Source: a virus
Taxonomy: Duplodnaviria > Heunggongvirae > Uroviricota > Caudoviricetes
Length of the DNA: 30,875 nt
IMG/VR virus record: IMGVR_UViG_2667527965_000004
Direction: 5' to 3' (one strand)
Part shown: positions 3,238-23,075 of the stretch, in pieces
Layout: every line of letters starts with the position of its first letter
Position numbering within the stretch: position 1 is the first letter of the stretch
Program-made: the position numbers and the translations under genes
Notes under the pieces: model-generated
Seen by the model: the letters and a program-made list of their open reading frames with translations, nothing else
Told to the model about the DNA's origin: nothing
The model's database searches: none

Positions 3238-3509
3238 GTATTCGTATCGAAATTGGCGAACGTTATGTCGTTACCAGTGACAGCTTTCAGTTTATTCTCC
3301 ACGAGAAAAAGAGAGCGGAAAGCGGTAAAAACGCCGGTCAGGAATGGCTGGCGGTGGTTGGTTATTACCCGAAATTAAGCCAGCTCGTTTCCGGCCTGAT
3401 GCATCACGATATTCTGACCGGAAGCGCAAAGTCTTTTGCTGATTTAAACGCGCAGGTTGAGCAACTCAGCAAGCGTTGCTCAGAGGCTTTTGGCTCATAT
3501 GGCCGTTAA
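3234..3509 (+). CDS. Small early protein, unknown function
   Basis: 91 aa; ATG overlaps previous stop (ATGA); 3' end overlaps start of A. Confidence 0.45.
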   Translation: MSIRIEIGERYVVTSDSFQFILHEKKRAESGKNAGQEWLAVVGYYPKLSQLVSGLMHHDILTGSAKSFADLNAQVEQLSKRCSEAFGSYGR

Positions 3510-5784
3510 AGCCTCCGGGCGTTTTGTCCCTCCGTCAGCATTTGCCGCAGGCACCGGTAAGATGTTTACCGGTGCTTATGCATGGAACGCGCCACGCGAG
3601 GCTGTCGGGCGCGAAAGACCTCTTACACGTGATGAGATGCGTCAGGTGCAAGGTGTTTTATCCACGATTAACCGCCTGCCTTACTTTTTGCGCTCGCTGT
3701 TTACTTCACGCTATGACTACATCAGGCGCAATAAAAGCCCGGTGCACGGGTTTTATTTCCTCACATCCACTTTTCAGCGTCGTTTATGGCCGCGCATTGA
3801 GCGTGTGAATCAGCGCCATGAAATGAACACCGACGCGTCGATGCTGTTTCTGGCTGAGCGTGACCACTATGCGCGCCTGCCGGGAATGAATGACAAGGAG
3901 CTGAAAAAGTTTGCCGCCCGTATCTCATCGCAGCTTTTCATGATGTATGAGGAACTCAGCGATGCCTGGGTGGATGCGCATGGAGAAAAAGAATCGCTGT
4001 TTACGGATGAGGCGCAGGCTCACCTCTATGGTTATATTGCTGGCGCTGCACGTGCTTTCAATATTTCCCCTCTCTACTGGAAAAAATACCGTAAAGGGCA
4101 GATGACCACGAGGCAGGCATATTCTGCCATTGCCCGTCTGTTTAACGATGAGTGGTGGACTCATCAGCTTAAAGGCCAGCGTATGCGCTGGCATGAGGCG
4201 TTACTGATTGCTGTCGGGGAGGTCAATAAAGACCGTTCTCCTTATGCCAGTAAACATGCCATTCGTGATGTACGTGCACGCCGCCAGGCAAATCTGGAAT
4301 TTCTTAAATCGTGTGACCTTGAAAACAGGGAAACAGGCGAGCGCATCGACCTTATCAGTAAGGTGATGGGCAGTATTTCTAATCCTGAAATTCGCCGGAT
4401 GGAGCTGATGAACACCATTGCCGGTATTGAGCGTTACGCCGCCGCAGAGGGTGATGTGGGGATGTTTATCACGCTGACCGCGCCGTCAAAGTATCACCCG
4501 ACACGTCAGGTCAGAAAAGGCGAAAGTAAAACCGTCCAGCTAAATCACGGCTGGAACGATGAGGCATTTAATCCAAAGGATGCGCAGCGTTATCTCTGCC
4601 GTATCTGGAGCCTGATGCGCACGGCATTCAAGGATAATGATTTACAGGCCTACGGTTTGCGTGTCGTCGAGCCACACCACGACGGAACGCCGCACTGGCA
4701 TATGATGCTTTTTTGTAATCCACGCCAGCGTAACCAGATTATTGAAATCATGCGTCGCTACGCGCTCAAAGAGGATGGAGACGAAAGAGGAGCCGCGCGA
4801 AACCGTTTTCAGGCAAAACATCTTAACCGGGGCGGTGCTGCGGGGTATATCGCGAAATACATCTCAAAAAACATCGATGGCTATGCACTGGATGGTCAGC
4901 TCGATAACGATACCGGCAGGCCGCTGAAAGATACTGCTGCGGCTGTTACCGCATGGGCGTCAACGTGGCGCATTCCGCAATTTAAAACGGTTGGTCTGCC
5001 GACAATGGGGGCTTACCGTGAACTACGCAAATTGCCTCGCGGCGTCAGCATTGCTGATGAGTTTGACGAGCGCGTCGAGGCTGCACGCGCCGCTGCAGAC
5101 AGTGGTGATTTTGCGCTGTATATCAGCGCGCAGGGTGGGGCAAATGTTCCGCGCGATTGTCAGACTGTCAGGGTCGCCCGTAGCCCGTCGGATGACGTTA
5201 ACGAGTACGAGGAAGAGGTCGAGAGAGTGGTCGGCATTTACGCGCCGCATCTCGGCGCGCGTCATATTCATATCACCAGAACGACGGACTGGCGCATTGT
5301 GCCGAAAGTTCCGGTCGTTGAGCCTTTGACTTTAAAAAGCGGCATCGCCGCGCCTCGGAGTCCTGTCAATAACTGTGGAAAGCTCACCGGTGGTGATACT
5401 TCGTTACCGGCTCCCACACCTCCTGAACACGCCGCAGCAGTGCTAAATCTGGTTGATGACGGTGTTATCGAATGGAATGACCCGGAGGTCGTGAGGACGC
5501 TCAGGGGTGCATTAAAACACGGCCTGAAAACACCAAATCGTCAGCAAAGAAACGGAAGTCCGTTAAAACCACATGAAATAGCACCGTCGGCCAGACTGAC
5601 CCGGTCGGAACGATTGCAAATTACCCGTATCCGCGTTGACCTTGCTCAGAACGGTATCAGGCCGCAGCGATGGGAGCTTGAGGCGCTGGCGCGTGGCGCG
5701 ACCGTAAATTATGACGGGAAAAAATTCACGTATCCGGTCGCTGATGAGTGGCCGGGATTCTCAACAGTAATGGCGCGGACATAA
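3499..5784 (+). CDS. A: Replication initiation endonuclease A (rolling-circle HUH relaxase)
   Basis: 761 aa from ATG 3499 (equals P2 A length; track start 3457 is TTG); HUH-type PHWHMMLF and tyrosine pair YIAKYISK motifs. Confidence 0.9.
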   Translation: MAVKASGRFVPPSAFAAGTGKMFTGAYAWNAPREAVGRERPLTRDEMRQVQGVLSTINRLPYFLRSLFTSRYDYIRRNKSPVHGFYFLTSTFQRRLWPRIERVNQRHEMNTDASMLFLAERDHYARLPGMNDKELKKFAARISSQLFMMYEELSDAWVDAHGEKESLFTDEAQAHLYGYIAGAARAFNISPLYWKKYRKGQMTTRQAYSAIARLFNDEWWTHQLKGQRMRWHEALLIAVGEVNKDRSPYASKHAIRDVRARRQANLEFLKSCDLENRETGERIDLISKVMGSISNPEIRRMELMNTIAGIERYAAAEGDVGMFITLTAPSKYHPTRQVRKGESKTVQLNHGWNDEAFNPKDAQRYLCRIWSLMRTAFKDNDLQAYGLRVVEPHHDGTPHWHMMLFCNPRQRNQIIEIMRRYALKEDGDERGAARNRFQAKHLNRGGAAGYIAKYISKNIDGYALDGQLDNDTGRPLKDTAAAVTAWASTWRIPQFKTVGLPTMGAYRELRKLPRGVSIADEFDERVEAARAAADSGDFALYISAQGGANVPRDCQTVRVARSPSDDVNEYEEEVERVVGIYAPHLGARHIHITRTTDWRIVPKVPVVEPLTLKSGIAAPRSPVNNCGKLTGGDTSLPAPTPPEHAAAVLNLVDDGVIEWNDPEVVRTLRGALKHGLKTPNRQQRNGSPLKPHEIAPSARLTRSERLQITRIRVDLAQNGIRPQRWELEALARGATVNYDGKKFTYPVADEWPGFSTVMART

Positions 5785-6236
5785 TGACAAAGATTCACAA
5801 AGTAAAGCTGCACGCAAAATATTTCGACCTTGTGCTGGAAGGAAAGAAACGCGCAGAGTTTCGGAAAAATGACCGTAATTATGAGCGCGGAGACACGTTG
5901 ATTTTGCATGAATGGGGGCAGGGTGTGTATACGGGGCGAAAGGTTGAAGCCCGGATAACAGATGTTACTGACCTGTCAGACTGGCTGGAAGATTATGTCT
6001 TGCTAAGTATTGAGCTGCTTAATACAGGCGCATATGAGATTGTGAACTGGAAAGAACTTAGTGAGCGTGGTCTGGTATTCAGAATTAATCATGAAATTAT
6101 GCATCAGCTCGGCCTTGCTGTTATGTATGAACCAGAGACGGGGATGTCTGGCGGGGCAATGGTTGCCACGGATGGAGCATGGAACTATTCAGATGAACAG
6201 ATTGAGCGTGCAAAGCAAAACGGGTGGCTTGGATAA
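5784..6236 (+). CDS. ASCH/DUF3850-like (PUA-fold) domain protein with extra C-terminal region
   Basis: ATG 5784 overlaps A stop (TAATG); N-terminus KIHKVKLHAKYFDLVLEGKKRAEFRKNDRNYERGDTLILHEW fits the ASCH-like pattern; occupies P2 orf91 position but is longer. Confidence 0.6.
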   Translation: MTKIHKVKLHAKYFDLVLEGKKRAEFRKNDRNYERGDTLILHEWGQGVYTGRKVEARITDVTDLSDWLEDYVLLSIELLNTGAYEIVNWKELSERGLVFRINHEIMHQLGLAVMYEPETGMSGGAMVATDGAWNYSDEQIERAKQNGWLG

Positions 6237-6439
6237 TGCACAGAATACCAGGCGAGATACCGCAACATAACACTAAAAATATCAAGCTGATGGCTATTGT
6301 TCACCGTCTACAGCAGATTATGGTCAACGAAAATCTGACGCCCGACGAGTTGGTCGGGTGTGCCGAAATAGTCCGGGATAATTACGTGCGGTTTAACGAT
6401 ATAGAACAGTCTAAAATTGCACTGCTACCACGTTGTTGA
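6236..6439 (+). CDS. Small hypothetical protein, translationally coupled to the ASCH-like gene
   Basis: ATG 6236 overlaps previous stop (TAATG); 67 aa; no recognisable motif. Confidence 0.4.
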   Translation: MHRIPGEIPQHNTKNIKLMAIVHRLQQIMVNENLTPDELVGCAEIVRDNYVRFNDIEQSKIALLPRC

Positions 6440-6765
6440 TAGAAAACCCCAGCAGTACTGAAACATGCTTCCAGTGCTGCTGGAGGGAACAACGAACAGC
6501 GAGAGGTGGTAGTTGGCCATCATTTGAGTATCAGCATATGATTGGATTTATAACGGTTGGAAAGATTAATGTTGGTGAACTAATAAATTACAAATATTCA
6601 CAAGAAGATCTTATGTTACTAACATGAGTTTATGTGTAATATAGCTGTACATACCAATATCCGCTGTACCTTTGTTTTTATTTGGTTTGTCAGGTGTCAC
6701 AGGTATGGTTGGCGTATGAGAATGGTTTATTTAAATTAAATATTGATTAAGGTTGAAAGAATGTC

Positions 6766-7662
6766 ATGAATAAAAGTAAAGCAATCTCAAGAATAGAGAG
6801 AGTGTTGAGAAGATTAAAGGATGGGAGTTTCACTGATAGTGATATTGATGTTCTTTTTGTTACGGCCCGTGAGTTGCCGAGTGCGCCCAAGTGTATTTTT
6901 GAAATTGGGAGTTTTGTTGCCCATAATCATCGGAGAGATCAAGGCGAGATAAAGGATATCATGCTGAGGAATCATTTGTTATTAAGTTTAAAATTTGGAC
7001 GCGATAAGCATGCTGTTAAACCAGAGTTAAATGAATACCCGAAATACTTACCTACATTAATCAGACTGCAATTAAGAATGTTCAGTGATGAGTTTTTAAA
7101 GGAGAAGTTAAACTTAAAGGGGGGGCAGGTAATTACAGCGAGGAAGAAGCTTAATAACAAGAAATCGTATATTGTTAATGATGGTGTTTGTAAGTTAACA
7201 CCAGAAATTGGTTCCAATGAAGGGCGAATGATTAATGAAGCTTTGTCGTTACTCAATTGTTCTGACGCAATTAAGTTCGACTCTTTATTTAATGAGCTGA
7301 AAATATTGCTTCGGAAGGAGATTTCAGGGGTGGACTTGATGCCGCTTGATAATAACAGGAGAGCAATAGCAGGCATCTTACTGTGTTTGTTGAATAATAT
7401 TGATTTTTCTCTGATGCCTGAAGTCAAAGCAAAAACAGTCCTTAGTCTTAATGATGCAGATAAATCTGCAAATGTTTATGGTCAATATTATATAACACAT
7501 GAAAAAGAGCCATTCACCGACGTGGCTATCATGAGCCCAGTGTTTCAGTCGGGGTATGATGTTAGTGACCTTTTTGATGAGCATGTGACAAATGAAAATA
7601 TCGTAAATGGGGATGTCGAATTTAGTTTTGATTTGGGGAAAATAGTTGTGTCGAAATCATAG
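6766..7662 (+). CDS. AT-rich orphan protein of unknown function (candidate accessory or defence cargo)
   Basis: 298-aa ORF, visibly AT-rich with K/N/I/L-rich codon usage unlike flanking phage genes; purine-rich RBS (GGTTGAAAGAA) upstream; no Walker, HNH, NTase or RT motif found by eye. Confidence 0.7.
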   Translation: MNKSKAISRIERVLRRLKDGSFTDSDIDVLFVTARELPSAPKCIFEIGSFVAHNHRRDQGEIKDIMLRNHLLLSLKFGRDKHAVKPELNEYPKYLPTLIRLQLRMFSDEFLKEKLNLKGGQVITARKKLNNKKSYIVNDGVCKLTPEIGSNEGRMINEALSLLNCSDAIKFDSLFNELKILLRKEISGVDLMPLDNNRRAIAGILLCLLNNIDFSLMPEVKAKTVLSLNDADKSANVYGQYYITHEKEPFTDVAIMSPVFQSGYDVSDLFDEHVTNENIVNGDVEFSFDLGKIVVSKS

Positions 7663-7824
7663 TTTAGACCCAAACGAGCACGTTCCTAATTTCCGTTCAA
7701 TACATGCATTTAGTGCATGATTTTGCATGCGGCAGCGATCGTTTTTTATTGTTTATAATCGCCTGTATTGACGATGTTTTGATGTGTTATTGCAACTGCA
7801 TTAAAAGCGCTCCATGAAGCGGGC

Positions 7825-7843
7825 GGGCGAGGCGGGGAAAGCA
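7825..7843. other. cos cohesive-end site (P2-type 19-nt sequence)
   Basis: Exact string GGCGAGGCGGGGAAAGCAC, which I recall as the P2 cohesive end, in the GC-rich gap between cargo and Q. Confidence 0.55.
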
Positions 7844-7986
7844 CTGCGCGCTGGCGGTGGTGCTGATTTTATTTTTTCAGCGTCTGAGCGCGTCGTGATG
7901 GCGTTTAGATTGTTAGCCGGGGCGTTGGTGTGTCTGCGGGCTATTTTGTGCGGTGGTGAGCGTGTGAGGGCGTGATGGCGGGTTGT

Positions 7987-8013: not shown

Positions 8014-9048
8014 TCAGCCGTTGTCAGTGTCCAGTGAGTAGTTTTTAAAGCGGATGACCTCCTGACCGAGCCAGCCGTTTATCTCGCGGATCCTGTCCTG
8101 TAACGGGATAAGCTCATTGCGGACAAAGACCTTTGCCACTTTCTCAATATCACCCAGCGACCCGACGTTCTCCGGCTTGCCGCCCATCAACTGAAAGGGG
8201 ATGCGGTGCGCGTCCAGCAGGTCAGCGGCGCTGGCTTTTTTGATATTAAAAAAATCGTCCTTCGTTGCCACTTCACTGAGCGGGATAATTTTAATGCCGT
8301 CGGCTTTCCCCTGCGGGGCATAGAGAAACAGATTTTTAAAGTTGTTGCGGCCTTTCGACTTGACCATGTTTTTGCGAAGCATTTCGATATCGTTGCGATC
8401 CTGCACGGCATCGGTGACGTACATGATGTATCCGGCATGTGCGCCATTTTCGTAATACTTGCGGCGGAACAGTGTGGCCGATTCATTCAGCCAGGCAGAG
8501 TTAAGGGCGCTGAGATATTCCGGCAGGCCGTACAGCTCCTGATTAATATCGGGCTCCAGCAGGTGAAATACTGAGCCGGGCGTGAAAGGTGTCGGCTCGT
8601 TGAAGGACGGCACCCACCAGTAAACATCCTCCTCCACGCCACGGCGGGTATATTTTGCCGGTGAGGTTTCCAGTCTGATGACCTTACCGGTGGTGCTGTA
8701 ACGCTTTTCCAGAAACGCATTACCGAACACCAGAAAATCCAGCACAAAGCGGCTGAAATCCTGTTGCGAAAGCCACGGATGCGGGATAAATGTCGAGGCC
8801 AGAATATTGCGTTTAACGTAAATCGGTGAGCTGTGATGCACGGCAGCACGCAGGCTTTTCGCCAGACCGGTAAAGCTGACCGGCGGCTCATACCATCTGC
8901 CGTTACTGATGCACTCGACGTAATCCAGAATGTCACGGCGGTCGAGTACCGGCACCGGCTCACCAAAGGTGAATGCCTCCATTTTCGGGGCGCTGGCGGT
9001 CATTGTTTTTGCCGCAGGTTGCGGTGTTTTCCCTTTTTTCTTGCTCAT
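8014..9048 (-). CDS. Q: Portal protein
   Basis: 344 aa, same length and position as P2 Q; operon with P. Confidence 0.88.
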   Translation of the reverse strand: MSKKKGKTPQPAAKTMTASAPKMEAFTFGEPVPVLDRRDILDYVECISNGRWYEPPVSFTGLAKSLRAAVHHSSPIYVKRNILASTFIPHPWLSQQDFSRFVLDFLVFGNAFLEKRYSTTGKVIRLETSPAKYTRRGVEEDVYWWVPSFNEPTPFTPGSVFHLLEPDINQELYGLPEYLSALNSAWLNESATLFRRKYYENGAHAGYIMYVTDAVQDRNDIEMLRKNMVKSKGRNNFKNLFLYAPQGKADGIKIIPLSEVATKDDFFNIKKASAADLLDAHRIPFQLMGGKPENVGSLGDIEKVAKVFVRNELIPLQDRIREINGWLGQEVIRFKNYSLDTDNG

Positions 9049-19153: not shown

Positions 19154-19757
19154 TTCGCGCCTGCTGCCGACCGGCTCATCACCGCTTGAAGTTGCCGCCG
19201 CAAAAGCCTGTGCGGAAATTGAAAAAACGCCGGTCAGTATTCGTGAGCTGTGGAACCCGGACACCTGCCCGGCAAATCTGCTGCCGTGGCTGGCGTGGTC
19301 ATTTTCGGTTGACCGCTGGGATGATAAGTGGCCGGAAGCGACAAAACGCGCTGTTATCCGCGATGCGTATTTCATTCACTGCCATAAGGGCACTATAGGC
19401 GCAATCCGGCGTGTGGTGGAGCCGCTCGGCTATCTGATTGAGGTAAGGGAGTGGTGGCAGCTCAACGAGGAGCCGGGGACGTTCCGTATCGTTGTTGGCG
19501 TGCTTGAGCAGGGTATTACCGAAGAAATGTATCAGGAGCTGGAGCGCCTCGTTGCTGATGCAAAACCGGCAAGCCGCCATCTGACGGGACTGGCTATCAG
19601 TTTAAGTACAAACGGCAACATTTTTGCCGGTGCGGGATGCTATCACGGCGACGCCCTGACGGTTTATCCCTACACCCCGGAGGCCATTATTGTCGGAGGG
19701 GATTATTTCCCGGCCTCGGCCATTCATTTAATTGATAACCTGAGAGTAAACGCATGA
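19146..19757 (+). CDS. I: Baseplate protein I
   Basis: 203-aa ORF in P2 gene I position, overlapping J stop and H start; true start not resolved. Confidence 0.75.
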   Translation: MSDSRLLPTGSSPLEVAAAKACAEIEKTPVSIRELWNPDTCPANLLPWLAWSFSVDRWDDKWPEATKRAVIRDAYFIHCHKGTIGAIRRVVEPLGYLIEVREWWQLNEEPGTFRIVVGVLEQGITEEMYQELERLVADAKPASRHLTGLAISLSTNGNIFAGAGCYHGDALTVYPYTPEAIIVGGDYFPASAIHLIDNLRVNA

Positions 19758-20938
19758 CAGTGAAATACTACGCCATTCTGACTAATCAGGGCGCAGCACG
19801 GCTGGCTAACGCGACGATGCTCGGCAGTAAGCTGAATCTGACGCAAATGGCCGTTGGTGATGCGAATGGTGTCTTGCCGACACCAGACCCGGCACAGACA
19901 AAACTGATTAACCAGAAACGCATCGCGCCGCTGAATCTTCTGAGTATTGACCCGAACAACCAGAGCCAGATTATTGCGGAGCAAATCATCCCTGAGAACG
20001 AGGGCGGATTCTGGATCCGTGAGATTGGGCTTTATGATGATGAAGGCGTACTCATTGCGGTGGCGAACTGCCCGGAAACGTACAAACCGCAGTTGCAGGA
20101 AGGCAGTGGTCGTACCCAGACTATCCGCATGATTCTGGTTGTCACGAATACCGAAGCCATCACGCTGAAAATCGACCCGTCGGTGGTACTGGCGACCCGT
20201 AAATACGTGGATGATAAAGTCCTGGAATTAAAGCTGTATGTGGATGACCAGATGAGAAACCACATTGCCGCACAGGATCCTCATACCCAGTATGCACAGA
20301 AACATAATCCGACATTTACCGGAGAACCAAAAGCGCCGACGCCTGCCGCAGGAAATAACACCACGCGGATTGCGACCACTGCGTTTGTACAGGCCGCTAT
20401 TACCGCTCTGATTAACGGTGCCCCTGACACGCTGGACACACTGAAAGAAATTGCCGCAGCTATCAACAATGACCCGAAATTCAGTACCACCATTAACAAT
20501 GCGCTGTCAGGTAAGCAGCCACTGGATGAGACGCTGACTCATTTGAGTGGAAAGGATGTTGCTGGTCTTCTCGCATACCTTGGTTTAGGAGAAGCGGCGA
20601 AAAGGGATGTGGGCACAGGAGATAATCAGATACCGGATATGGGAGCATTCGCTTCTGGTTCGGGATGGTTCAGGCTACCAGGTGGATATATTGTTCAGTT
20701 TGGCACTTTTTCAGGAAACACGACCCGCTTTATCAGTGGACACTTCCCTATACCATTCCCTAATCAGCCGATGGTTTCAGTCAGTGTTATGTCTGATGCC
20801 GTTCAGTCAGACCCGTCGAATCCTGCCCCGCAGGTTTTGTCTGTAAATTTTGAACATATCAGTAATTCAGCGTGGCGTGTGGCAACCAGTGATATCTCAC
20901 AGCAATACAGATTCAGTTATATTTCGATAGGACGGTAG
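19754..20938 (+). CDS. H: Tail fibre protein H (constant N-terminal part plus the currently expressed variable C-terminal cassette)
   Basis: 394 aa, shorter than I recall P2 H to be; crossover site sits in-frame at codons for LGLGE (20568..20593). Confidence 0.85.
   Translation: MTVKYYAILTNQGAARLANATMLGSKLNLTQMAVGDANGVLPTPDPAQTKLINQKRIAPLNLLSIDPNNQSQIIAEQIIPENEGGFWIREIGLYDDEGVLIAVANCPETYKPQLQEGSGRTQTIRMILVVTNTEAITLKIDPSVVLATRKYVDDKVLELKLYVDDQMRNHIAAQDPHTQYAQKHNPTFTGEPKAPTPAAGNNTTRIATTAFVQAAITALINGAPDTLDTLKEIAAAINNDPKFSTTINNALSGKQPLDETLTHLSGKDVAGLLAYLGLGEAAKRDVGTGDNQIPDMGAFASGSGWFRLPGGYIVQFGTFSGNTTRFISGHFPIPFPNQPMVSVSVMSDAVQSDPSNPAPQVLSVNFEHISNSAWRVATSDISQQYRFSYISIGR
20568..20593. repeat. Left gix/hix-like inversion crossover site (26 bp) inside H
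   Basis: TTCTCGCATACC-TT-GGTTTAGGAGAA; reverse complement matches the right site at 20 of 26 positions (11 of 12 in the inner half-site) with matching AA/TT core. Confidence 0.65.
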
Positions 20939-20940
20939 AA

Positions 20941-21381
20941 ATGCAGAAATATATTTTCAGTGCCGATAAAAATGCGTTTTTCCCTGTGGAGCTTAAAATC
21001 GCTTATCAGGAATCCGGCGAATGGCCCGGTGATGGAATCGAAATTGACGACACTGTTGCCGCCGAATTTATGAAGGAAGCACCAGAAGGAAAATACAGAG
21101 GTGTCATCGACGGAATGCCTGCATGGATTGATATTCCACCGCCAACTCATGAGGAACAAATTGCCGCAGCCGAACTGGAAAAGCAGCAATTGATTAATCA
21201 GGTCAACGAATACATAAACAGTAAGCAATGGCCTGGTAAAGCGGCGATTGGTCGCCTGAAAGGTGGGGAACTGGCGCAATATAATTTGTGGCTGGATTAT
21301 CTGGACGCACTGGAACTGGTCGATACTTCCGGTGCGCCAGATATTGAATGGCCTACGCCTCCGGCAGTTCAGGCCAGATGA
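20941..21381 (+). CDS. G: Tail fibre assembly chaperone (current orientation)
   Basis: 146 aa directly after H; C-terminal motif IEWPTPPA shared with the convergent copy. Confidence 0.8.
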   Translation: MQKYIFSADKNAFFPVELKIAYQESGEWPGDGIEIDDTVAAEFMKEAPEGKYRGVIDGMPAWIDIPPPTHEEQIAAAELEKQQLINQVNEYINSKQWPGKAAIGRLKGGELAQYNLWLDYLDALELVDTSGAPDIEWPTPPAVQAR

Positions 21382-21955
21382 CGTCCGGCGCTGTGCTGGT
21401 ATCTGTTGCCGTCACCGCGTCAATGTAATCCAGCACGGCGTTAAGTCGGGTTGTTTCTGCCTGCGTCAGTTTCCGTCCGGCCTGTAATTTCAGCTGAATC
21501 AGACTAATGGAAGCCATTGCTGCATCAATCAGTGACTGGCGCTGTGCTTCTGCTGCGTCTACTGCGGCACTATGCTGTGCCTCAGTATCCGTCACCCATT
21601 TCTCACCATCCCATTTATCATATGGCGTTAACGGGGCGATAGTGGTTGTATTTTCAGGGTAATCACCCGGAGCTGTGATTTCTTTCGATTCTCCTGTTTC
21701 GGTGCTATAGATGATTTCACCGCGATGGTCTGGCACATATTCCCATGAGTTAAAATCTGCAGAACGGCAGATTGCATAACCAGCTTTATGTGTAACTGGT
21801 GCATCTAAACAAGAACATGCCGGGATACCGACGCCAACCGCAAGATATTCAGTTGATGTGGAAATATATTCCCGCGTTTCACCATCATAATTATAAATGG
21901 TAATGTCTCCCGCTTTTATGGCAATGAGTTCGTTATTTAATACGGCTTTATTCAT
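21353..21955 (-). CDS. Alternative tail fibre assembly chaperone (inverted orientation)
   Basis: 200 aa on minus strand converging on G; C-terminal motif VIWPELPEA. Confidence 0.8.
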   Translation of the reverse strand: MNKAVLNNELIAIKAGDITIYNYDGETREYISTSTEYLAVGVGIPACSCLDAPVTHKAGYAICRSADFNSWEYVPDHRGEIIYSTETGESKEITAPGDYPENTTTIAPLTPYDKWDGEKWVTDTEAQHSAAVDAAEAQRQSLIDAAMASISLIQLKLQAGRKLTQAETTRLNAVLDYIDAVTATDTSTAPDVIWPELPEA

Positions 21956-22455
21956 CAGGCAGCCCTCACGATATAATTAAAGGCAATGTTACGAGGTCGG
22001 TTTTCGTTTGCAGTTGGAACAACTCTGGAAGCATCGAATGTTACTTGCTTTGCATAACCACCTTTAATTGAATCAGATGAAGCATCTCCGATGACGCTGG
22101 TTGTAAAAACGCCAGAATCAGAAGGGTAGGTATTAAACCTGACATCCACTAATGCACCAATTATATTTCGAATGGCATCTCCCTGTGACGAAAGCAAGCT
22201 ACGGTTAGTATCTATTCCTCTTCCGTCATCCCAGCCACGAATGAACTCACCACGTAAATCAGGCAATTTATTTGTCGGGTAAGCCTTTGCCAGTTCCGGG
22301 TATTCTTCAGCAGAAAAAGCCGCACCGTTGCATTTCAGCCAGCCTGTTGGCGGAGTGGCTGAAGGCCACGGAACAGGCACCCCAACAGGTAATGCAGAGC
22401 CTTCTCCCAAACCAACGTTTATGAAAATGCAGAAATAACGAGCAAATGGCATCAT
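21955..22455 (-). CDS. Alternative tail fibre C-terminal cassette (silent until inversion; ORF read-through upstream of 22402 is not a real N-terminus)
   Basis: Minus-strand ORF containing GLGEGSALPVGVPVPWP... (Mu S/P1-type fibre tip); the crossover repeat is in frame with the H repeat. Confidence 0.75.
   Translation of the reverse strand: MMPFARYFCIFINVGLGEGSALPVGVPVPWPSATPPTGWLKCNGAAFSAEEYPELAKAYPTNKLPDLRGEFIRGWDDGRGIDTNRSLLSSQGDAIRNIIGALVDVRFNTYPSDSGVFTTSVIGDASSDSIKGGYAKQVTFDASRVVPTANENRPRNIAFNYIVRAA
22402..22427. repeat. Right gix/hix-like inversion crossover site (26 bp)
   Basis: TTCTCCCAAACC-AA-CGTTTATGAAAA; resembles the Gin/Hin site pattern (TTC...AAACC NN GGTTT...AA); 55 bp upstream of the invertase start. 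Confidence 0.65.
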
Positions 22456-22481
22456 TCCTGCTTTTGTCAGGGAGAGCTACC

Positions 22482-23075
22482 ATGCTTATTGGCTATGTAC
22501 GCGTGTCAACAAATGACCAGAACACCGATTTGCAACGTAATGCACTGAACTGCGCGGGATGTGAGCGGATTTTTGAGGATAAAATCAGCGGCACGAAGTC
22601 CGACAGGCCGGGACTGAAAAAACTGCTCAGAACATTATCAGCAGGTGACACTCTGGTAGTCTGGAAGCTGGACAGGCTGGGGCATAGTATGCGGCATCTG
22701 GTCATTCTGGTTGAGGAACTGCGCGAACGCGGTGTTAATTTTCGCAGCCTGACGGATGCCATTGATACCAGCACGCCGATGGGGCGTTTTTTCTTTCATG
22801 TGATGGGGGCCCTGGCTGAAATGGAACGAGAACTCATTGTCGAGCGGACTCGGGCCGGGCTGGAAGCGGCCAGAGCCAAAGGTCGTATTGGTGGCAGACG
22901 TCCTAAACTCACCACGAGTGAGTGGGAGCAGGCCGGGCGTTTGCTGGCTGCAGGGGAGTCACGTCAACGCGTGGCACTGATTTTTGATATTGGTCTGTCC
23001 ACGCTCTATAAAAAATTTCCCTCATCAGCGACAAAGAATAAATTGTGTCATCCCTTAGCCAACCGGGACAAATAG
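22482..23075 (+). CDS. Serine DNA invertase (Hin/Gin/Cin/Pin family)
   Basis: 197 aa from ATG 22482 (MLIGYVRVSTNDQ... with catalytic-serine motif, C-terminal HTH); directly flanks the invertible segment. Confidence 0.9.
   Translation: MLIGYVRVSTNDQNTDLQRNALNCAGCERIFEDKISGTKSDRPGLKKLLRTLSAGDTLVVWKLDRLGHSMRHLVILVEELRERGVNFRSLTDAIDTSTPMGRFFFHVMGALAEMERELIVERTRAGLEAARAKGRIGGRRPKLTTSEWEQAGRLLAAGESRQRVALIFDIGLSTLYKKFPSSATKNKLCHPLANRDK

Follow-up and report, generated by a model that had tools for sequence, protein, structure and literature searches.

A single-gene cassette beside cos in a P2-like prophage and a candidate phage-exclusion protein from a large uncharacterised family

Comparison of a 30,875-nucleotide (nt) stretch of a P2-like prophage (IMG/VR record IMGVR_UViG_2667527965_000004; hereafter the window, whose positions serve as coordinates throughout) with related elements shows that the interval next to its cos site harbours a horizontally acquired accessory module made of a single gene, which occupies the cos-adjacent GpA-GpQ hotspot, can be swapped for other cargo and is mobile between types of element. 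The gene (6766..7662, + strand) encodes a protein of 298 amino acids (aa) and is a well-delimited candidate from a large uncharacterised family, already catalogued and residing in a hotspot whose context is well known. Single-protein phage exclusion, in the sense of competition between genetic elements, appears to us the most probable function of this protein, a preference that we hold tentatively.

The cargo cassette and its gene

The literature identifies the GpA-GpQ (old/tin) interval next to cos as the principal hotspot of variability and defence in P2-like phages. In the window, the 298-aa gene lies inside this interval, flanked by gene A and a DUF3850 gene on one side and by cos and the portal gene Q on the other. 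When the region was compared by blastn with three E. coli P2-like prophages that carry other cargo (L025-L027), homology stopped at 6512-6514 and resumed at 7778-7790, with flank identities of ~92-94%. A first-pass annotation of this DNA had assigned the gene to the P2 tin/old hotspot, a location with which both the literature and the occurrence of the same flanks around other cargo agree, and the open reading frame (ORF) that it reported is exact, on the + strand and with an ATG start. The interval outlined at that time (6440-7824) proved slightly too wide, since 6440-6513 belongs to the conserved left flank and ~7690-7825 to the cos-proximal packaging region. The swappable cargo cassette spans ~1.2 kb (6514..7690) and consists of a leader, one gene only, as had been anticipated, and a short 3′ tail. 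Because homology to the other P2-like prophages stops at 6512-6514, the leader preceding the ATG measures 252 nt (6514..6765, + strand). It is indeed AT-rich and contains only weak sigma-70-like sites, for instance at 6597-6625, and comparison with Rfam gave no credible match to an RNA element. A conserved promoter within the leader was considered and rejected, given that the leaders of homologous cassettes do not align with each other and that the promoter sites occur at chance level.

The cassette also differs from its surroundings in base composition. The GC content of 6480-7790 is 0.363, and the ORF itself shows a value of 0.368 both overall and at third codon positions (GC3), vs a GC of 0.528 in the whole window; for comparison, GC and GC3 reach 0.533 and 0.541 in A, 0.53 and 0.652 in the portal gene Q, and 0.576 and 0.717 in the terminase gene P. 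The AT-richness formerly judged by eye is thus confirmed by the GC/GC3 profile, the 298-aa gene being the lowest-GC stretch of the 30.9 kb.

The 298-aa ORF is a real gene under purifying selection. Its full-length collinear homologs form 34 clusters at 90% identity, with lengths of ~295-300 aa and identities of 42-99% in end-to-end alignments. The ratio of non-synonymous to synonymous substitution rates (dN/dS) against the Klebsiella homolog is 0.11, falling to 0.06 over aa 1-210 and rising to 0.24 over aa 211-298, and the proportion of non-synonymous differences (pN) lies far below that of synonymous ones (pS). It could be argued that the frame is a chance ORF or a decaying remnant within AT-rich filler DNA, as DNA of this kind does give rise to long spurious ORFs, such as the 151-aa antisense ORF at 6972..7427, and the promoter signal is not above chance. 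That explanation is effectively refuted by the low pN relative to pS, by full-length collinear homologs that keep the motifs from 99% down to ~15-20% identity, by two independent AlphaFold models with predicted local confidence scores (pLDDT) of 91 and 96, and by the integrity of the ORF in 25 of 25 carrier E. coli genomes, two of which have the insertion sequence IS903B just downstream. In those two genomes (EC9952, L037 2771-3739; hit H7) the insertion sequence landed between the intact gene and cos.

Distribution, family and protein architecture

Carriage of the gene among P2-like prophages is patchy. A 2.35 kb query across the region matched at its flanks in 2158 of 5426 complete E. coli genomes, and only 25 of these 2158 contain the 298-aa gene, which is therefore not core. 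All 25 carriers have it at ≥99% identity, and their sources comprise pig, poultry, cattle, human and river water. Other prophages fill the same slot with different cargo, namely a 139-aa hypothetical protein in L025 and modules with ParB-N, hypothetical and methyltransferase genes in L026 and L027. These latter modules (L026 6938-9976, L027 6908-10056) encode a ParB N-terminal-domain protein, a ~340-aa hypothetical protein and a Dcm or Dam methyltransferase in two arrangements, and look like a distinct candidate system.

In Dickeya, Cronobacter, Klebsiella and other P2/186-like prophages, homologs whose identity ranges from 45% (Dickeya) to 73% (Klebsiella) take up the slot that directly precedes cos, and the close branch of the family is nearly always located in the P2 hotspot. 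Klebsiella and Cronobacter loci contain an extra unannotated gene of 183-243 aa directly upstream (L032 5345-5896, L033 1258-1809, L030 5132-5863), which neither the E. coli window nor Dickeya has; no gene was called at that place in L031. Two homologs of 49% identity occur in other settings. One of them lies intact in a decayed P2 remnant between housekeeping genes (L028, 4916-7855), where only a 276-aa fragment of A and a 131-aa fragment of the portal protein are kept, suggesting that the gene is retained after prophage death. The second resides in a non-P2 prophage of Klebsiella quasipneumoniae (L029, 3710-12894), between umuD/umuC-like genes and genes for tail fibres, which shows that the family moves from one type of phage to another.

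Distant homologs extend this range to a 5.3 kb Psychrobacter Mob plasmid, an 11 kb Acinetobacter plasmid, where the gene stands beside BrnTA, and an IS-flanked megaplasmid island. In Vibrio parahaemolyticus (L038-L043, 2181-7984) a small island has inserted between AlaE and the gene of a chemotaxis receptor; it carries an integrase (DUF6538), a variable hypothetical protein of 276/311 aa, an RNase H and a resolvase, with the distant homolog as its last gene. A further distant homolog is located near a KAP NTPase in A. baumannii, and another in an islet after the trp operon in Aeromonas, for which a tandem paralog was considered and rejected. The family gene is always single and usually forms the cargo of a prophage, a small plasmid or an integrase island, and in 24 of 24 loci it is more AT-rich than its surroundings, by a mean of 11.8 points. 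The neighbourhoods of 18 loci have no gene family in common besides integrase/transposase-like genes, with AlbA_2 recurring in two of them. Related Schlafen/AlbA_2-domain proteins follow the distant homolog at a distance of one or two genes in a Rhizobiales genome (L017 9023-10030) and in a genome of Runella, a member of the Bacteroidota (L023 10042-10998); in L017, a MauJ-domain protein overlaps the start of the distant homolog.

The protein, of the WP_001043197.1 type, is already catalogued as a bare record without function or Pfam assignment. In Rousset et al. 2022 it appears in Table S5B as System #75 (one protein, no Pfam, 53 of 18,150 loci), with a representative that differs from the 298-aa protein at three residues, while WP_001043197 is present in Table S5A. 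Likewise, phrog_29586, for which no function is given, matches the protein over its full length (1.1e-211), and both phrog_29586 and System #75 correspond to the same family as the 298-aa protein. The term 'undescribed' used in the first-pass annotation was hence justified in that no function or annotation is on record, and overtaken in that these two entries exist. Literature searches with the accession and with pA21BP1, the homolog-bearing plasmid, returned nothing.

The gene had also been called an orphan, which it is not. An exhaustive profile search of 1.84 billion representatives (50%-identity clusters) retrieved at least 432 relatives at E≤1e-3, with 127 at E≤1e-10, from Proteobacteria and Bacteroidota. 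Most of them measure 290-340 aa, and most distant homologs align only over profile positions ~8-230. All 53 sampled superfamily members gave phrog_29586 as their sole PHROG match, and source databases designate every family member as 'hypothetical protein'. Distant relatives were not reached by a word-index search with broad alignment, and neither megablast nor tblastn found a homolog among 50,697 phage records, P2 included.

The 298-aa product is a soluble protein of 33.8 kDa without transmembrane segments, whose two halves differ in charge, with isoelectric points (pI) of 9.6-9.9 for aa 1-148 and 4.3-5.1 for aa 148-298. The AlphaFold model (pLDDT 90.9; predicted template-modelling score, pTM, 0.85) places in order a helical N-terminal module, a unit of three helices and a β-hairpin (aa 95-145), a helical linker and a β-rich C-terminal module, and the model of a distant-branch member with ~19% identity (pLDDT 95.8) has the same order of elements. 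The N-terminal helical module (aa 1-95; 6766..7050, + strand; pI 9.6) is the most conserved part of the protein, with a conservation peak of 0.81-0.84 at aa 21-60. It contains the signature E46-x5-A52-H53-x3-R57-x2-G60 (6901..6945, + strand; superfamily consensus FREIADFVAHNDxRDxG). Across 53 sequences of 15-50% identity, R35, A52, H53 and G60 are invariant and E46, R57, P92 and L208 near-invariant. The motif also proved effective as a search pattern for related loci, and it may constitute an active or ligand-binding site.

The second element, a winged-helix-like unit (aa 95-145; 7048..7200, + strand), is rich in lysine and arginine (pI 9.9). Its resemblance to the winged helix-turn-helix (wHTH) proteins TubR, ArgR, E2F8, MarR-type and Rex amounts to weak matches, all of them below significance. 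The C-terminal module (aa 212-298; 7399..7659, + strand; pI 4.3), with strands between residues 213 and 295, is the fastest-evolving part of the protein, with the lowest conservation (0.49-0.60), and could represent a specificity or sensor domain.

None of the searches related this three-module architecture, with its gradient of conservation, to any known family. Pfam, PADLOC (PADLOC-DB 2.0) and NCBIfam gave zero matches at E≤1 for the 298-aa protein, in agreement with the absence of recognisable signatures and defence families noted in the first reading of the sequence, and no characterised non-defence family was matched either. For the 53 superfamily members, the same three collections yielded none at E≤0.01 save isolated chance matches. 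The structure prediction and fold search then proposed have provided a confident model, with no match below E 0.37 in the PDB or below E 0.086 in BFVD by Foldseek, so that the predicted fold is without significant match as far as these two collections go. Sequence-profile searches of the PDB with profiles A1, A2 and A3 returned chance-level matches only. The motif does bear some resemblance to the FAD-binding AHPQIRNRGTIGG segment of a CODH-type flavoprotein subunit (PDB 7dqx; E 0.4-0.8), which was rejected because the fold context differs and E is ~1, and which is probably a coincidence.

Phage exclusion and its alternatives

Several lines of evidence point to phage exclusion, namely the locus itself, the patchy distribution, the fidelity to the slot, the mobility and retention of the gene, its condition of single-gene cargo, some defence-type neighbours, its AT-richness, the gradient of selection along the protein and the order of elements shared by the two models. 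Regarding the neighbours, ~9-10 of 142 around 18 distant loci are of defence type, a raw count from a small sample. The defence-type neighbours of the family include DUF4238 (twice), directly adjacent Schlafen/AlbA_2 proteins (twice), a CBASS cyclase, DpdF, a reverse transcriptase (RT), SoFic, PsyrT, a KAP NTPase and methyltransferases. We infer a role of the protein in defence, binding to nucleic acid, a catalytic motif and a sensor function of the C-terminus. Under this mechanism, a soluble, stand-alone protein of 34 kDa would operate in the cytoplasm, where its basic N-terminal module, bearing the E46/H53/R57 signature, together with the winged-helix-like unit, would engage nucleic acid and supply the effector activity. 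This effector might block a step of replication or transcription of the invader, or damage nucleic acid by abortive infection. The acidic, faster-evolving C-terminal module would recognise a phage component, thereby setting the specificity, and release or direct the activity of the N-terminal part. The wider proposal that the whole family consists of widespread single-polypeptide immunity proteins, with a fold unrepresented in the PDB and BFVD, a new effector site built on E-x5-AH-x3-R-x2-G, and a nucleic-acid-directed N-terminal effector joined to a diversifying C-terminal sensor, is possible and, in our opinion, rather doubtful.

Among prophage-borne single polypeptides with a comparable layout, CapRel(SJ46) combines a conserved N-terminal effector with a variable C-terminal part that recognises phage proteins. 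The gradient of conservation between the N- and C-terminal parts of the 298-aa protein would fit the logic of such fused sensor/effectors, as an analogy of architecture only, since in contrast to CapRel(SJ46) it has no RelA/SpoT-type or other known toxin domain in Pfam or PADLOC. The lactococcal-type Abi proteins with HEPN domains (AbiD/AbiF, Pfam Abi_2) are of similar size, AT-rich, stand-alone and borne by plasmids or prophages, and their all-helical conserved N-terminal half likewise has conserved His and Arg residues. A HEPN RNase was nevertheless discarded, given that the motif is not R-x4-6-H and that no HEPN fold was matched.

Closer to the locus, old and tin of P2 occupy the same slot between A/Orf91 and cos as non-essential prophage cargo that varies among P2-like phages; they are two genes read from the other strand, with a promoter mapped beside cos, whereas here a single gene runs co-directional with A. 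Homology was rejected both to Tin (hhalign probability 0.1%) and to Old (0.7%), the 298-aa protein having no AAA, ABC or TOPRIM match in Pfam. DUF4238, a single protein from the P2 hotspot that protects against T7 (Rousset et al. 2022), offers another parallel as a stand-alone product of ~290-350 aa from the same hotspot, whose mechanism is unknown. A DUF4238 gene lies two genes from the distant homolog in L006, and a second DUF4238 is found among the neighbours. The demonstrated phenotype belongs to DUF4238 and not to the 298-aa protein, and homology between them was discarded (hhalign probability 0.1%, no match to Pfam PF14022).

A number of points weigh against phage exclusion. Cargo unrelated to defence is known from the hotspot as well, with partition systems in ~1/4 of loci and the cytolethal distending toxin as examples, only 20.8% of its cargo groups match DefenseFinder, and only three of eight new P2 candidates were active in the eight-phage panel of Rousset; it is these base rates (~21% of cargo groups, three of eight candidates, partition systems and toxins in the slot) that keep our assignment tentative. 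Neither the tested sets of Rousset 2022 (Table S2) nor those in the supplements of Vassallo 2022 include the 298-aa protein. Its gene is co-directional with A and the early operon, unlike old and tin, and the leader contains five promoter-like sites vs 4.8 expected from shuffled sequences. Many neighbourhoods of distant relatives are of housekeeping type (ABC transporters, trp operon, acyl-CoA dehydrogenase), and some of the PADLOC matches of neighbours (AriA, mad) probably come from ordinary ABC ATPases and transporters.

With these reservations in mind, the protein might instead be a non-defence moron, acting as a DNA-binding regulator of host or element genes in lysogeny stability, repression of satellite or host loci or counter-silencing, for example, with no direct effect on infecting phages. 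The basic N-terminal half with its winged-helix-like unit and the weak matches to the wHTH regulators already named would fit such a role, as would the position of many distant homologs amid housekeeping genes or beside TetR, HxlR and AraC regulators and the non-defence cargo known from the hotspot. We regard this explanation as unlikely, though, since all of the wHTH matches stay below significance and since a regulator would normally keep a conserved target or neighbour, whereas no neighbour is conserved across the 18 loci and the leaders of homologous cassettes are not conserved either. Moreover, the strictly conserved polar residues E46, H53 and R57 lie outside the putative recognition helix, which suggests a pocket or active site in preference to simple reading of DNA.

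A counter-defence protein that neutralises host immunity during entry or induction of phages or plasmids is an improbable alternative, in spite of the co-direction with the early replication operon, from which read-through is possible, the carriage by several kinds of mobile element, the acidic C-terminal module (pI 4.3) and the lack of a match to any defence family. Recognisable anti-defence genes are rare in P2-like prophages according to the literature (28 of 1511 elements), and a 298-aa protein with three modules exceeds most known inhibitors in size. In addition, the gene is intact in the decayed remnant of L028 and in chromosomal islands, settings in which a function on the side of the phage would bring no benefit, and the 50,697 phage genomes contain no homolog. 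We consider it very improbable that the gene serves element maintenance as a plasmid-type replication initiator, segregation or addiction factor of P2-like elements and small plasmids. The distant homolog on the 5.3 kb Psychrobacter plasmid without annotated Rep could be read in that sense, as could the winged-helix units typical of iteron-binding Rep proteins and the plasmid partition genes of about a quarter of the P2 hotspot loci. On the Psychrobacter plasmid (L034), however, no iteron-like multi-copy repeats flank the gene, nor were multi-copy direct repeats found in 6400-7850 of the window, and the homolog-bearing Acinetobacter plasmid has Rep genes of its own. Most homologs are single genes borne by chromosomes or prophages without an origin-like region, no Pfam Rep family is matched, and there is no conserved adjacent antitoxin-like partner of the kind expected for a type II toxin-antitoxin pair.

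If phage exclusion is indeed its function, the known repertoire would gain a compact one-gene system of 0.9 kb whose fold is unrepresented and whose biochemical activity is uncharacterised, and several hundred clusters now called 'hypothetical' in Vibrio, Acinetobacter, Aeromonas, Klebsiella and marine bacteria would thereby receive an annotation. The invariant His/Arg/Glu motif and the gradient of conservation between domains provide handles for mutagenesis and domain swaps. Should the gene not act in defence, it would be useful as a counter-example to guilt-by-location predictions at the prophage hotspot that has been studied best.

Flanking regions and other features of the window

On the left, the cargo is preceded by the replication endonuclease gene A (3457..5784, + strand) and by the equivalent of P2 Orf91 (5748..6236, + strand), which belongs to the conserved flank and lies outside the cargo, with ~92% conservation by blastn in prophages with other cargo. 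Its product matches DUF3850 (7.7e-18), DUF7415 (2.3e-14) and ASCH (4.6e-11) in Pfam, and P2 Orf91 is annotated as DUF3850. The Orf91 equivalent at 5748-6236 is a DUF3850/ASCH-DUF7415 fusion of 162 aa, P2 Orf91 having only 109 aa, and shares 37 nt with the 3′ end of A. A small ORF follows within the conserved left flank (6224..6439, + strand; 71 aa in the ORF call, 67 aa as annotated, WP_021517479.1), which corresponds to phrog_11386 (4.2e-39) and adjoins different cargo in L025-L027.

Directly after this small ORF, a hairpin with a 14-bp stem (6447..6486, + strand) lies 27 nt upstream of the cargo junction and hence still within the left flank that is conserved. Its minimum free energy is −24.3 kcal/mol (z = −4.64), none of 200 shuffled sequences being as stable, and no U-tract follows the stem. 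This hairpin may mark the end of the early operon or a recombination boundary of the hotspot. An Rfam hairpin match at 6437-6495 was discarded as spurious.

On the right, the cos-proximal packaging region (7697..7825, + strand) is conserved backbone rather than cargo. A motif search located in it a GTGCATG...TTGCATGCG element at 7703-7731. This GTGCATG...TTGCAT(GCG) element, which precedes cos by ~110 nt, can be aligned with P2 (L049), with the P4 sequence of Table S2 in Rousset et al. 2022 and with P2-like prophages that carry other cargo, and for this reason the segment from ~7700 to cos was assigned to the packaging region. This prophage shares the exact variant GCATGnnTTTGCATGCG with P4 and with the homolog loci of Klebsiella and Cronobacter, whereas P2 does not have it. 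A hairpin at 7703-7719 was rejected as a terminator of the cassette itself, both because it is no more stable than shuffles (z = −0.46) and because it belongs to the cos region that is common to P2 and P4. The cohesive-end sequence of cos, GGCGAGGCGGGGAAAGCAC (7826..7844, + strand), is an exact match, identical to the P2 cosR end annotated in NC_001895. The portal gene Q (8014..9048, − strand) lies to the right of cos, and the terminase gene P is also on this side.

Elsewhere in the window, the second-lowest-GC region (19754-23075) corresponds to an invertible tail-fibre segment, which comprises a gene for a tail fibre, two tail-fibre assembly genes in opposite orientations, a fragment of an alternative fibre with a Collar domain and, at 22446-23075, a DNA invertase (Resolvase + HTH_7).

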